Positions 36,159-51,805 of a stretch of DNA of 64,000 nt are shown here, in pieces (within the stretch, counting starts at the first letter, position 1; every line of letters starts with the position of its first letter). Source of the DNA: an uncultured Steroidobacteraceae bacterium (lineage in GTDB: Bacteria > Pseudomonadota > Gammaproteobacteria > Steroidobacterales > Steroidobacteraceae); contig CAZZZU010000003.1 in assembly GCA_964658805.1 (NCBI GenBank), positions 5,482-69,481 of the forward strand, given 5' to 3'. The position numbers and the translations under genes were made by a program. Under the pieces are notes generated by a model. It had not been told where the DNA came from, searched no databases, and worked only from the letters and a program-made list of their open reading frames with translations.

Positions 36159-36234
36159 GCGGGAATAGCTCAGTTGGTAGAGCGCAACCTTGCCAAGGTT
36201 GAGGTCGCGAGTTCGAGTCTCGTTTCCCGCTCCA
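36159..36234 (+). tRNA. glyW: tRNA-Gly (anticodon GCC)
   Basis: 76 nt, GCGGGAATAGCTCAGTTGGTAGAGC...TTCGAGTCTCGTTTCCCGCTCCA. Near-identical to the E. coli tRNA-Gly(GCC). Anticodon loop TTGCCAA. Encoded CCA. Confidence 0.97.
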
Positions 36235-36474
36235 AAACATCACCCAGCAGTTATCGGCGTGTGTAGCTGTGGATAACTCCTAACATTTGAATCCCGCAGC
36301 TTCTCCGATGTGCTCCGCTCATGGTTTAAGCATCCCGCTTCTGAGCGTCGGGAAAAGATCATTTTTTCCTAATTTTCATAAAGTTAGACAAGAAACATAT
36401 TGGTAATTCTGCAAGTTGTACCGGTTTAGGCCCGGGCGATGGTCGTCTAGCTTTTGCTGGCGCATCAATCGCGG

Positions 36475-36780
36475 TCAAGGCAGCACTCTCAGCGTGTGCA
36501 CTTTGGAGAGGTCCCGATCGTGAGTAACGTGCTCGTCGGCATTGAGGGAGATGGCGCTCGCTGCTTGCACAGCATCCGCAAGCTTGAGACGCAGCGAGGC
36601 GCGCAGTCGGGCCGTAGCGGCAGCGATGTCTGCCTACAATTCGATCAGGTGCCAAGTCTCGAGGACCGCTCGATAACGCTCAGCCAGTGCTTCGTCGCCC
36701 GCTTGCAATGAGCCAGTGAGGACTTCTGCCAAACTGATCGTAGTGACGTCGAACTGAACGCGTTCCGCGTCGTGCTTCAA
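36475..36780 (-). pseudogene. VapC-like PIN-domain toxin remnant (N-terminally truncated, in-frame TAG)
   Basis: Manual translation of the minus strand: LKHDAERVQFDVTTISLAEVLTGSLQAGDEALAERYRAVLETWHLIEL*ADIAAATARLRASLRLKLADAVQAASAISLNADEHVTHDRDLSKVHTLRVLP*. The C-terminal half matches the PIN pattern (..D-a-i-q-l-A-s-A...lvT.D.d). In-frame TAG at 36636-36634. The first acidic PIN motif and any upstream antitoxin are missing. Confidence 0.55.
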
Positions 36781-36909
36781 TCAGGCTTGGCATCGTGTCA
36801 TGGAACCATTCAGGCGCTTTGGCGTGGTGCAGGTGGTGCGGCCAAAGCCATTCCCTTGCCTTGTGCGATAGGGGGCGAACTGCTAGCATTTTGGGCTGAA
36901 TCGCTGAAC

Positions 36910-36942
36910 GCAAACCCCGGACCGCCCGGGGTTTGCTGTTTT
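36910..36942 (+). terminator. intrinsic-terminator-like hairpin 8 nt upstream of tRNA-Cys
   Basis: 11-bp perfect stem GCAAACCCCGG / CCGGGGTTTGC, 5-nt loop, followed by TGTTTT. Confidence 0.5.
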
Positions 36943-36949
36943 AGACGAT

Positions 36950-49620: not shown

Positions 49621-50957
49621 CGTTGCGCAGTGCGCTCACGTGTGTTGCGCTGGCACTGGCGCTCGGGTGCATCGCGCCGCCCGTCTGGGGACAGTCGACA
49701 CCGGGGGATGCCGGCGCTCAGATTCCGGGTGGCCCCTTACCGGTCGAGGCGCCGGCCGCGGTGCCGCCGACGTCCTGGACTGCGTATCTGAACCCAAAAA
49801 CCTGGTTCAATCCGAAGACCGCACCATTCATACCGATTCCGGAAATCGCGGTGGATCCTGACAGCGGCACGACGCTGGGCATCATTCCGACATGGCTGCG
49901 GACCGATGCAAACAGCCAGATTCGGCAGATCATCGCCCCGGATATTCTGCATAACCCGTATTTCGGATGGGGCGTGCACGGCCGCATCTACTCTTATTCT
50001 TCGGGTGACGAGCAATGGTCTTTGGTGGCGGGCATCAAGGAACGGGTCGAACGCAAAGTCGACCTCGAATATCAGCAAGGCCGCTTGCGCGATTCGCGCT
50101 GGTCGATCAATTACAGCCTGCTCTACGATCGCGACGGCACGCCGCGGTTTTACGGTATTGGCAATCAAACACGCGGCGGCGCTGAAACCAGTTACACCAG
50201 CAATCGTGGCTTCGGTCAGGTACAGGTCGGATTCAACTTCACCCATGCGTGGCAACTGCTGTATACCGGACGCTATCAGGCGCTCGATGTGCTCCCCGGT
50301 TCGATCAGCGATCTCCCGAGCATCGAGCAACGCTTTCCGACCGTCACGGGCCTCGGCACCAGCAAGCAGTTCTTGAACCGGCTGAGCGTGATCTACGACA
50401 CGCGCGACGATCTGACCATCCCTACGCGGGGAATGAAGTGGGCGGTGTACGGCGGTGGTGCCAGCAGCCGCGGCCTGCTCAACGACACCATGTACAGCGA
50501 GACCGGCGTCGACGGGCGAATCTACTGGCCGCTTGCGCTCGATACGGTATTAGCGGGTCACTTTGCGTTGCGCTACCTGCCGTCGGTGCACGACGTGCCT
50601 TTCTGGGCGTTGAGCACGGTCGGCGGCGGCGAGAGCGAAATCGGCGGGGTAGAAACGCTGCGCGGTTATGGCGCGGGCCGCTTTTACGATCGCAACGCGT
50701 TCTCGGGCACGGTGGAATTGCGGCGCAAGGTCTATTCCCTCGATATCGTGAGCACCACGCTCGACATCGAGGTGGCGCCTTTCATCGATGTCGGGCATGT
50801 GTTTCACGAAACCAGTTCGTTGCCCTTCGACCATCTGCATCCGGTATTCGGCGTCGGTTTCCGCGGCATCGCACGGCCATTCGTGGTGGGATATGTGGAC
50901 ATTGGTCGCGGCAGCGAGGGCGCTGCAGTATTCACGGGACTCAATTATCCGTTCTGA
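49617..50957 (+). CDS. Omp85/BamA-family outer-membrane beta-barrel (surface-antigen domain), no obvious POTRA array
   Basis: Signal peptide (TLRSALTCVALALALGCIAPPVWGQ). Loop-6-type motif ETLRGYGAGRFYD. C-terminal FTGLNYPF. GTG 49617 overlaps the aepZ stop (GTGA); alternative ATG 49596. Confidence 0.78.
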   Translation: MTLRSALTCVALALALGCIAPPVWGQSTPGDAGAQIPGGPLPVEAPAAVPPTSWTAYLNPKTWFNPKTAPFIPIPEIAVDPDSGTTLGIIPTWLRTDANSQIRQIIAPDILHNPYFGWGVHGRIYSYSSGDEQWSLVAGIKERVERKVDLEYQQGRLRDSRWSINYSLLYDRDGTPRFYGIGNQTRGGAETSYTSNRGFGQVQVGFNFTHAWQLLYTGRYQALDVLPGSISDLPSIEQRFPTVTGLGTSKQFLNRLSVIYDTRDDLTIPTRGMKWAVYGGGASSRGLLNDTMYSETGVDGRIYWPLALDTVLAGHFALRYLPSVHDVPFWALSTVGGGESEIGGVETLRGYGAGRFYDRNAFSGTVELRRKVYSLDIVSTTLDIEVAPFIDVGHVFHETSSLPFDHLHPVFGVGFRGIARPFVVGYVDIGRGSEGAAVFTGLNYPF

Positions 50958-50977
50958 CTGATGCATAATGATTAAGG

Positions 50978-51664
50978 ATGAAAGAATTTAAATCGCGTGG
51001 ACGCACTCGGTTGCGTCCAACAGGCTCCATGTCGGTAACTCAAGTTTCGGCGCCGGTGATCCAGACGTCGCGGGTAACCGTGATGTTTGCGGATCTGCGC
51101 GGCTACACCGGTCTCGCCGAGCGGCTGGCGCCGGCGGCGGTATTACCCTTGCTGGACGAATTTTTTCGCCTGGTGGCCACAGCGATTGCCAACCACGGCG
51201 GTGACGTGTACCACATGGCGGGCGACGGCATCATGGCGGGATTCGGCGTGAACTCCAAACAAAGCGACGGGTCGCATGAGGCGTTGGCCGCCGGGCACGA
51301 GATGCTGCGTGCCTTCGCGCCGATCGCAGAACGATGGCGCGTCGAGCTCGGAATCGATTCCGGAATCGGCGTCGGTCTGCATTTGGGCGAAGTCGCAGTA
51401 GGGTCGCTGGGACCCCCGCGCCGCAAGAGCACCACGCTGGTGGGCGACACGGTGAACGTGGCGGCCAGGCTCTGCAGCCGGGCGCGAGCCGGCGAAGTGC
51501 TGTTCTCGTGCACGGTGGCCGAGGCGCTGTCGAGCAGCACCAATCCCCCTGTGCATGCCTCAGATGGCATCCCGTTTCTGCAGCTGCCGCAGTTTGAATT
51601 GCGCGGCAGGCGTGAGCCCATCGATATCTGGTGTGTGCCCGCCCCCGAGCGCGTCGCCCTCTAG
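50978..51664 (+). CDS. stand-alone class III nucleotidyl cyclase catalytic domain
   Basis: VMFADLRGYTGL (metal Asp), GDGIMAGFG (second metal Asp), GLHLGEVAVG, LVGDTVNVAARL (Asn/Arg). No sensor or TM domain; 228 aa. Confidence 0.8.
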   Translation: MKEFKSRGRTRLRPTGSMSVTQVSAPVIQTSRVTVMFADLRGYTGLAERLAPAAVLPLLDEFFRLVATAIANHGGDVYHMAGDGIMAGFGVNSKQSDGSHEALAAGHEMLRAFAPIAERWRVELGIDSGIGVGLHLGEVAVGSLGPPRRKSTTLVGDTVNVAARLCSRARAGEVLFSCTVAEALSSSTNPPVHASDGIPFLQLPQFELRGRREPIDIWCVPAPERVAL

Positions 51665-51718
51665 ATTCAGCGTGTCTGAAAGGCCTGCATGAAGCTGGTA
51701 AACTTTTGCCGGCTTTAA

Positions 51719-51805
51719 GCCCTCGTGGCGGAATCGGTAGACGCAACGGACTTAAAATCCGTCGGCCGCAAGGCCGTGCCGGTTCGAGTCCGGCCGAGGG
51801 CACCA
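51719..51805 (+). tRNA. leuZ: tRNA-Leu (anticodon UAA)
   Basis: 87 nt with a long variable arm. GCCCTCGTGGCGGAATCGGTAGACGC...; anticodon loop CTTAAAA; T-arm GGTTCGAGTCC; encoded CCA. Confidence 0.95.

Follow-up and report, generated by a model that had tools for sequence, protein, structure and literature searches.

A 64-kb window (the whole stretch of 64,000 nucleotides analysed here, from contig CAZZZU010000003.1 of an uncultured Steroidobacteraceae bacterium) was found to carry genes for tRNA-Gly(GCC), tRNA-Cys(GCA) and tRNA-Leu(UAA), in this order, directly downstream of uvrC and pgsA. Comparison with related loci makes it very probable that this ancestral array is an insertion hotspot with several junctions, and that it holds, between tRNA-Cys and tRNA-Leu, a long-resident and vertically inherited phosphonolipid gene cluster. 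The 14.7-kb Cys-Leu interval had been taken in a first-pass annotation of the window as one accessory island of 13 genes. The number of genes was right, as 13 open reading frames (ORFs) were counted. The single island did not stand, since eleven of the 13 genes keep their place in the Cys/Leu bracket across the clade and are core-like in composition, and the genes, which had been left unidentified, include those of a phosphonate (2-aminoethylphosphonate, AEP) lipid cluster.

The tRNA array and its compact ancestor

Relatives of the locus are numbered L001 and so on. A scan of a genome collection with PgsA gave 80 loci, of which 60 were scanned for tRNA genes. The tRNA calls were made with ARAGORN and then with the Rfam tRNA model (gathering score 29), and domains were assigned with Pfam and NCBIfam. 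ARAGORN detected three tRNA genes in the whole window, all on the plus strand, and the positions and spacers given for them in the first-pass annotation proved exact by ARAGORN, Rfam and Pfam.

33686–35530, plus strand: uvrC, backbone (Pfam UvrC domains; 81–86% identity to relatives)
35505–36101, plus strand: pgsA, backbone (Pfam CDP-OH_P_transf)
36159–36234, plus strand: tRNA-Gly(GCC) (ARAGORN; Rfam 71.9 bits)
36950–37023, plus strand: tRNA-Cys(GCA) (ARAGORN; Rfam 58.7 bits)
51719–51805, plus strand: tRNA-Leu(UAA), intronless (ARAGORN; Rfam 61.9 bits)

A class II DAHP synthase and a UDG-family protein (Pfam) precede uvrC-pgsA, and this order is kept in the closest relatives. The nearest PgsA matches, with 75–87% identity, belong to uncultured Steroidobacteraceae-type Gammaproteobacteria.

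The comparison with the glyW-cysT-leuZ operon of Escherichia coli, already drawn in the first-pass annotation, was confirmed in NC_000913.3, where uvrC-pgsA is followed by glyW, 54 nt, cysT, 12 nt and leuZ. Right behind pgsA the window repeats the three anticodons, their order and their orientation, whereas its spacers measure 715 nt (Gly-Cys) and 14,695 nt (Cys-Leu) and are thus not compact. A terminator-like hairpin stands ahead of tRNA-Cys in the window. A putative promoter-like box ahead of each tRNA gene would make transcription as a single operon unlikely.

A compact Gly-Cys-Leu array was present in 13 of the 60 gammaproteobacterial loci, including the Steroidobacteraceae-type L006, L007 and L014, while L003 and L005, from the same family-level group as the window, have tRNA-Gly and tRNA-Cys separated by a hairpin only. 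As compact arrays occur both in E. coli and in these 13 loci, the compact form is ancestral. Splitting of the array is frequent in this part of the tree: 9.4 kb lie between tRNA-Gly and tRNA-Cys in L002 and 6.1 kb between tRNA-Cys and tRNA-Leu in L011, and the arrays of L029, L036, L044, L050, L052 and L058 are also open at one or the other junction.

The phosphonolipid cluster between tRNA-Cys and tRNA-Leu

The 13 ORFs of the Cys-Leu interval are separated by intergenic gaps of no more than 70 nt. The first two, next to tRNA-Cys, are treated with the junctions below; the remaining eleven, from a Rieske oxygenase gene to a cyclase gene, are as follows.

38984–40144, plus strand: Rieske/VanA_C non-haem iron oxygenase, start probably at 39002 (Pfam; 74–87% identity in relatives)
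40173–42440, minus strand: MMPL-family RND exporter, MmpL3/actII-like (Pfam; NCBIfam MmpL3 187 bits)
42482–43165, plus strand: CDP-alcohol phosphatidyltransferase-family head-group transferase (Pfam CDP-OH_P_transf; seven-gene core)
43166–43933, plus strand: Fe(II)/2-oxoglutarate (Fe/2OG) oxygenase, HalD-like (Pfam; seven-gene core)
43930–44916, plus strand: HpnL-family/LPG_synthase_TM flippase-like membrane protein (TIGR03476 306.8 bits, cut-off 195.65; start from the L085 gene call)
44920–45681, plus strand: stand-alone PntC-type nucleotidyltransferase (Pfam NTP_transf_3, PF12804; seven-gene core)
45684–47393, plus strand: phosphoenolpyruvate (PEP) mutase (Ppm) fused to a PntC-type nucleotidyltransferase (TIGR02320 400 bits, cut-off 319.55; Pfam PEP_mutase and C-terminal PF12804)
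47393–48550, plus strand: phosphonopyruvate decarboxylase (Ppd) (TIGR03297 439 bits, cut-off 312.5)
48550–49620, plus strand: AEP aminotransferase, ORF open from 48409 (TIGR03301 378.7 bits, cut-off 360.8)
49596–50957, plus strand: Omp85-family outer-membrane barrel (Pfam, NCBIfam; behind the aminotransferase in nearly all related clusters)
50978–51664, plus strand: class III nucleotidyl cyclase (Pfam Guanylate_cyc; orthologs 61–69% identical)

The window Ppm has thousands of environmental homologs with 75–83% identity. It was used to retrieve six genomic contexts (L081, L082/L083, L084, L086, L087 and L088), and a metagenome scan with the same protein added 80 loci, which were analysed by local ARAGORN, tblastn and blastn. 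All six Ppm-retrieved relatives have orthologs of the genes that run from Rieske to cyclase, eleven in number, at 56–87% amino-acid identity, with the MMPL gene in only three. In the same set tRNA-Cys(GCA) lies upstream in five of six and tRNA-Leu(UAA) just past the cyclase in four of six, as scanned without the intron option. The Rieske gene is the first gene of the clade-conserved cluster and stands directly behind tRNA-Cys in many relatives; with the metagenome loci included, a full tRNA-Cys was detected upstream of it in 24 loci, and tRNA-Leu(UAA) adjoins the cyclase in 21 of the 21 loci that reach that far. The order (uvrC-)pgsA-tRNA-Gly, a gap of 3.1–4.5 kb, tRNA-Cys, Rieske gene and cluster was read on one contig each in L100, L111 and L126. 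Between L111 and the window uvrC is 82% and pgsA 77% identical and the cluster genes are 65–81% identical, so that backbone and cluster have diverged to a similar extent. Between 40 and 57 kb the composition is like that of the core, with z-scores of −1.2 to +1.1 for tetranucleotides and a GC content at third codon positions (GC3) of 0.68–0.77. From conserved placement, similar divergence and core-like composition it follows that the cluster is old in the clade and was inherited in place, and the term 'inserted' applies to it only relative to the family-level ancestor. Ancestral genes of core-like composition had been named in the first-pass annotation as the finding that would speak against an insertion; this is what was found for eleven of the 13 genes within the clade, and not for the family-level ancestor. 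Other metagenome loci (L097, L116, L121 and others) contain the core and Omp85 with neither the Rieske gene nor the tRNAs, and presumably come from other lineages.

The identity of the cluster was deduced from its family matches and gene order. The Ppm protein contains the motif EDKxxxxxNS, and fusions of Ppm to PF12804 account for one third of all Ppm enzymes (PMC6697681). The seven-gene core described by Li and Horsman in 2022 consists of Ppm-PntC, Ppd, AEP transaminase, an alpha-KG/Fe(II) oxygenase, a second PntC and two phospholipid genes (PMC8942020); the 'Burkholderiales_CDP-OH' family to which it belongs equals, as far as the citation in that paper goes, the 'Group 1 phosphonolipids' of Yu et al. 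2013. The product predicted for Group 1, a 1-hydroxy-AEP lipid, has never been isolated (PMC8942020). The window contains each of these components, namely Ppm with its motif, Ppd and aminotransferase, two PntC proteins of which one is fused to Ppm, the oxygenase and two phospholipid genes, in the order CDP-alcohol transferase, Fe/2OG oxygenase, LPG-synthase-TM, PntC, Ppm-PntC, Ppd and AEP aminotransferase. The same seven genes in the same order occur in the annotated region of the Mycetohabitans rhizoxinica plasmid pBRH01 (L089), and tblastn against plasmids and chromids gave Ppm proteins of Burkholderia and Mycetohabitans that are 72–74% identical to that of the window. The window cluster therefore belongs to a family that is known and chemically uncharacterised. 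It differs from the Burkholderiales members in its gammaproteobacterial host, in the addition of a conserved Rieske oxygenase, an Omp85 barrel, a cyclase and sometimes an MmpL protein, and in its location between two tRNA genes, that of M. rhizoxinica being beside dxs/ispH/hpn.

In L089 (8612–25641) the seven-gene core is followed by dxs, an MMPL transporter gene, ispH, hpnH and hpnA. These neighbours and the HpnL-family match in the window hint at a link of Group 1 phosphonolipids with isoprenoid/hopanoid lipids. The MMPL gene of the window has counterparts in L081, L086, L088, L094, L115, L150, L161 and L166 and is absent from the other related loci. Its assignment as the hopanoid transporter HpnN was rejected (51 bits against an HpnN cut-off of 752); the protein is closer to MmpL3/actII, and therefore no hopanoid claim is made for it.

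Following the family assignments and the literature, Ppm would convert PEP to phosphonopyruvate, Ppd would yield phosphonoacetaldehyde and the aminotransferase would produce 2-AEP, which the Fe/2OG oxygenase probably hydroxylates. The two PntC nucleotidyltransferases would turn the head group into a CMP conjugate, and the CDP-alcohol transferase would place the phosphonyl head group on a lipid alcohol. The HpnL-like domain might then flip the product, which the MmpL-type exporter and the Omp85 barrel would carry towards the outer membrane. It is conceivable, although this is a tentative proposal, that the clade unit (Rieske oxygenase, seven-gene core, HpnL-like flippase, optional MmpL, Omp85 and cyclase) specifies a Group 1 phosphonolipid as an outer-membrane lipid of these soil bacteria, and that lodging between two normally single-copy tRNA genes has preserved its synteny while all adjoining junctions turn over. 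Were this so, the Omp85 barrel and the MmpL exporter would constitute a dedicated phosphonolipid export route.

Turnover at the junctions of the array

The flanks of the tRNA genes have continued to turn over. On either side of tRNA-Cys the window contains the following elements.

36235–36909, unstranded: Gly|Cys insert, from behind tRNA-Gly up to the ancestral hairpin of the spacer (tetranucleotide z = 2.6–2.7)
36475–36889, minus strand: decayed PIN/VapC toxin gene, with a frameshift near 36775–36780 and an in-frame stop at 36634–36636
36910–36936, plus strand: GC-rich, terminator-like hairpin of 11 pairs with a T-run, 14 nt upstream of tRNA-Cys
37093–38172, plus strand: LpxD-like hexapeptide N-acyltransferase (PRK00892 299 bits, cut-off 207; TIGR01853 277 bits, cut-off 242.5; GC3 0.675)
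38169–38936, plus strand: 255-aa predicted outer-membrane beta-barrel with a signal peptide and a C-terminal Phe (AlphaFold and Foldseek)

The decayed toxin gene that the first-pass annotation had noticed in the Gly-Cys spacer could be assigned to the PIN/VapC type, since the frame matches Pfam PF01850 (E = 2e-7, 32 bits, cut-off 23.6) and, in a PDB sequence search, VapC of entry 7by2_B (E = 4.6e-4); NCBIfam gave no match for the pseudogene. VapBC-type modules are common on islands. The remnant has the PIN-domain similarity of a type II VapC toxin, but its frame is broken by the frameshift and the stop, and no antitoxin partner was found, with no partner ORF in 36890–36949; it is a remnant and not a toxin-antitoxin system. 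Kinship with the intact PIN gene beside tRNA-Leu in L084 was rejected, the two being unrelated. The spacer of 715 nt, with this dead gene as its only content, is shorter than any other seen in the clade and is probably the stump of a larger element. The hairpin is older. In the compact loci L003, L005 and L006 the AACCCCGG/CCGGGGTT hairpin itself makes up the Gly-Cys spacer, and its stem is kept, with variable loops, ahead of tRNA-Cys in more than 15 relatives, most of the split ones included. Insertion at Gly|Cys therefore takes place downstream of the tRNA-Gly 3' end and ahead of the hairpin.

Gly|Cys cargo was different in every genome examined, and cargo varies by junction in L001, L002, L005, L011, L013, L091 and L092. 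A complete Wadjet JetABCD system (12856–19422) directly follows pgsA-tRNA-Gly in L091, whose UvrC is 83% identical to that of the window. The cargo consists of TPR/sulfotransferase genes and a group II intron reverse transcriptase in L001, of OmpA, an ice-binding-like protein and HldE in L013, of a methyltransferase, a GNAT acetyltransferase and a hybrid kinase in L002, and of unrelated genes in L098, L100, L111 and L126. A P4-type integrase with low-GC genes immediately follows tRNA-Cys in L005 (10983–16812). Partial 3' copies of tRNA-Gly, 46–52 nt long, stand upstream of tRNA-Cys in L087, L098, L131 and L135, with a 35-nt copy in L106, and 23–24-nt fragments of the tRNA-Cys 3' end stand ahead of the Rieske gene in L107 and L161. 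The integrase and the partial tRNA copies are classic footprints of integrase-mediated insertion and bear out the proposal that tRNA flanks served as landing sites. At the Omp85-cyclase junction there is nothing in the window and there are one to four genes in relatives.

No homolog of the LpxD-like gene was found in any of the related loci compared; the protein scores above the equivalog cut-off and is an extra paralog of LpxD-type UDP-3-O-acylglucosamine N-acyltransferase adjoining tRNA-Cys. The 255-aa protein had no Pfam or NCBIfam match and 54 homologs among 5.8 billion proteins. Its AlphaFold model (pLDDT 77.5) has ten strands and Gly/Tyr-rich loops, and Foldseek matched the fold to OpcA and Pla/OmpT-type proteins at TM 0.56–0.69; it is predicted to be a rare ten-stranded outer-membrane barrel of the OpcA/Pla type. 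In L094 its best homolog (63%) is flanked by tRNA-Cys and the Rieske gene. In L093 a homolog adjoins a TonB-dependent receptor gene.

The first three genes of the Cys-Leu interval had seemed by eye to be richer in A/T at third codon positions. The direction was correct and the effect is small (GC3 0.664–0.675 against a window mean of about 0.735 and 0.70–0.77 in the flanking core genes). Tetranucleotide deviation in the array region peaks at 36.0–40.0 kb (z = 2.0–2.7), beyond which the core-like values given above begin. Only the tRNA-proximal edge is the recent part of the 14.7-kb interval.

Domain searches of the 13 ORFs and the spacer, together with repeat searches, disclosed no integrase, transposase or att-type repeat in the window interval, in agreement with the first-pass annotation. 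The longest partial tRNA copies measure 11–17 nt, with one exception: a T-arm-like stretch of 27 nt inside the MMPL gene (40555–40581) matches tRNA-Cys at 85% identity. It was rejected as an att remnant, having E = 0.35, stopping short of the tRNA 3' end and lying away from any gene boundary. The locus resembles the tRNA islands of P4-type tyrosine integrases in the variable genes immediately 3' of its tRNAs, and its relatives, not the window, show the integrase (L005) and the tRNA 3'-end duplications of 23–52 nt. It differs in having no integrase and no direct repeat of a tRNA 3' end at the far boundary, in that most of the interval is shared across the clade, and in that presence/absence polymorphism within it is confined to the LpxD-like, barrel and MMPL genes. 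Its composition is mixed, atypical at 36.0–40.0 kb and native at 40–52 kb, which is the greater part of it.

Past tRNA-Leu, two further features were assigned.

51810–61396, unstranded: window-specific block of pqiA, pqiB, pqiC, an alpha/beta hydrolase (minus strand), an amidase (minus strand) and a TonB-dependent receptor (Pfam)
61643–63553, plus strand: ABC exporter with fused ABC_membrane and ABC_tran domains, where the backbone resumes (Pfam)

Genes of the block were found in none of the relatives compared. Orthologs of the ABC exporter stand just past tRNA-Leu in L084 (79%), L087 (76%) and L098 (77%), and ccm genes stand directly after tRNA-Leu in L007, L011 and L014 and a few genes past it in L082 and L086. 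An assignment of 63.1–63.5 kb as ccmA, suggested by ATPase cross-matches, was rejected because Pfam shows the fused exporter.

The array was indeed split by insertions, the ancestor being compact and the window colinear with it and expanded at the junctions, yet more than two events are needed, where at least two had been envisaged. At least the following are distinguished: those at Gly|Cys and Cys|Leu, a later addition 3' of tRNA-Cys, presence or absence of MMPL, and the 9.8-kb block after tRNA-Leu. Comparison of the loci shows that the Rieske gene, the seven-gene core, Omp85 and the cyclase came to lodge between tRNA-Cys and tRNA-Leu in an ancestor of a subclade and were passed on in that place, and that the tRNA flanks have gone on turning over, leaving in the window the 0.7-kb insert with its VapC remnant, the LpxD-like and barrel genes and the post-Leu block. 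How the original insertion took place can no longer be read from the sequence; integrase-mediated capture at the 3' end of a tRNA gene is the likeliest route, because relatives show such capture at these tRNAs. Each separated tRNA gene may by now have a promoter-like element of its own, for which these candidates were noted.

36115–36142, plus strand: sigma-70-like promoter pattern TTGACT-16-TACAAT, 10/12 positions, ahead of tRNA-Gly (consensus scan)
36861–36889, plus strand: weak candidate tRNA-Cys promoter TTGTGC-17-TAGCAT with TG at −15/−14 (read from sequence)
51696–51704, plus strand: extended −10-like box TGGTAAACT, 14 nt ahead of tRNA-Leu (putative function)

Upstream of the tRNA-Cys hairpin, relatives have boxes of the forms TGnTAAACT, CCAGTAACTT, TGTATACT, TGTAAACT or GGTAAACT, and L111, L134 and L146 have a full TTGACA-17-TAACTT. 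The motif CTG(G/C/A)TA(A/G)ACT ahead of tRNA-Leu is kept in the window, L081, L082, L084, L086, L088 and L139, and the independently split L011 has TGGTAGGCT at the position equivalent to the TGGTAAACT box of the window. A −10-like box, often with an upstream TG, at each separated tRNA suggests that promoters were gained or retained after the array was split.

Some observations lie beside these points. In 13 loci the tRNA-Leu(UAA) gene beside the cyclase is on the minus strand and is split after U34 by an insert of 231–235 nt with a...g ends (CUU/a...g/AAAA), as called by ARAGORN with the intron option.

L087 19479–19798, L098 18046–18366 and L100 19054–19374, minus strand: interrupted tRNA-Leu
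L101, L103, L106, L108, L109, L112, L115, L117, L134 and L146, minus strand: interrupted tRNA-Leu

The position after U34 is the Leu.3Ug site that is classical for group I introns (bioRxiv 10.1101/2020.01.27.920355); the Rfam Intron_gpI model gave no confirmation of such an intron (11.8 bits, E = 1.5). As listed, the pqiA ORF begins 4 nt past the end of tRNA-Leu, which leaves no space for a ribosome-binding site (51806–51812), and translation probably starts at a later codon. Tetranucleotides also deviate (z about 2.6–2.7) at 59001–61500, inside the TonB-dependent receptor gene, and at 7001–9000. The ORF at 10938–11717 on the minus strand has a GC3 of 0.48 against about 0.74 elsewhere, and is probably either spurious or an overlap with a genuine gene on the opposite strand.

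Alternative explanations and significance

Long residence of the cluster in a repeatedly opened array had to be weighed against four other explanations. That the 14.7 kb are a recently acquired integrative island, whose target in this strain or species was tRNA-Cys or tRNA-Leu, would suit the position, tRNA flanks being classic integration sites, as well as the deviant tetranucleotides and lower GC3 (0.66–0.675) of the first 3 kb or so, the LpxD-like gene found in no relative and the true islands at these tRNAs in relatives. It is however improbable, as eleven of the 13 genes are identically placed in 20–30 related loci, the composition from 40 to 52 kb is core-like, and the interval has neither integrase nor att repeat; it is largely refuted for 39–51.7 kb and holds at most for 36.2–39.0 kb. 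Nor is it likely that tRNA-Cys, cluster and tRNA-Leu move as one mobile block for which adjacency to pgsA-tRNA-Gly is secondary. The genes just upstream of tRNA-Cys differ among L081, L082, L084, L087 and L088 and are in none of them pgsA-tRNA-Gly, and between the two protein searches no uvrC-bearing contig of the relatives agreed in length with a Ppm-bearing one. Against such a block, pgsA-tRNA-Gly stands a few kb upstream on a single contig in L100, L111 and L126, the ancestral hairpin of the Gly-Cys spacer is still attached to tRNA-Cys, the tRNA-Gly 3' copies upstream of tRNA-Cys in L087, L098, L131 and L135 are expected if islands entered tRNA-Gly in situ, and ccm or ABC-exporter backbone genes lie behind tRNA-Leu. 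These three tRNA anticodons are, moreover, normally single-copy.

Native dispersal of the tRNAs, with no compact array ever present in the lineage, would account for the wide gaps in most close relatives; it has very little probability in view of the compact arrays of L006, L007 and L014, the compact Gly-hairpin-Cys of L003 and L005, the compact arrays across Gammaproteobacteria including E. coli, and the order and orientation retained in the window. A chimeric contig with a false adjacency of tRNAs and cluster is the least credible of all. The source is a metagenome assembly with a contig of 81,991 bp and tRNA genes are repeat-like join points, but the Cys-Rieske, cyclase-Leu and pgsA-Gly-Cys junctions recur in many independent assemblies (JGI, ENA, NCBI), and the independent Logan assembly L085 reproduces 38.6–48.7 kb.

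Several points nevertheless weigh against a long-resident cluster in a hotspot array. All relatives are metagenome-assembled genomes or metagenome contigs and some are probably near-duplicates, so that counts of loci are not counts of independent lineages. The few kb upstream of tRNA-Cys are without pgsA-tRNA-Gly in five of the six Ppm-retrieved relatives, and the closest uvrC/pgsA relatives (L013, L001, L091 and L092) are without tRNA-Cys within 5–10 kb of tRNA-Gly; in both groups continuity of the array is assumed. The opposite orientation of tRNA-Leu in 14 relatives shows that the locus was also rearranged locally. The window bears no scar of the original insertion, the promoter assignments are pattern matches only, and the lipid product of the Group 1 cluster family has never been determined.

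The locus demonstrates that a tRNA-flanked block without mobility genes need not be recent: comparative placement dates such a block, which composition and missing scars cannot. The related loci form a natural series in which one tRNA operon was opened at each junction by different cargo, Wadjet and integrase islands included, a series useful for the study of tRNA-flank hotspots and of how separated tRNAs regain promoters. The value of the locus lies in this series of comparisons and in the partner genes conserved with a chemically uncharacterised lipid pathway. The abundant Group 1 phosphonolipid cluster family is extended from Burkholderiales to widespread soil Steroidobacteraceae-like bacteria, in which the conserved partners (Rieske oxygenase, Omp85 barrel, cyclase and MmpL) may offer starting points for studying what the cluster makes and how this is exported.

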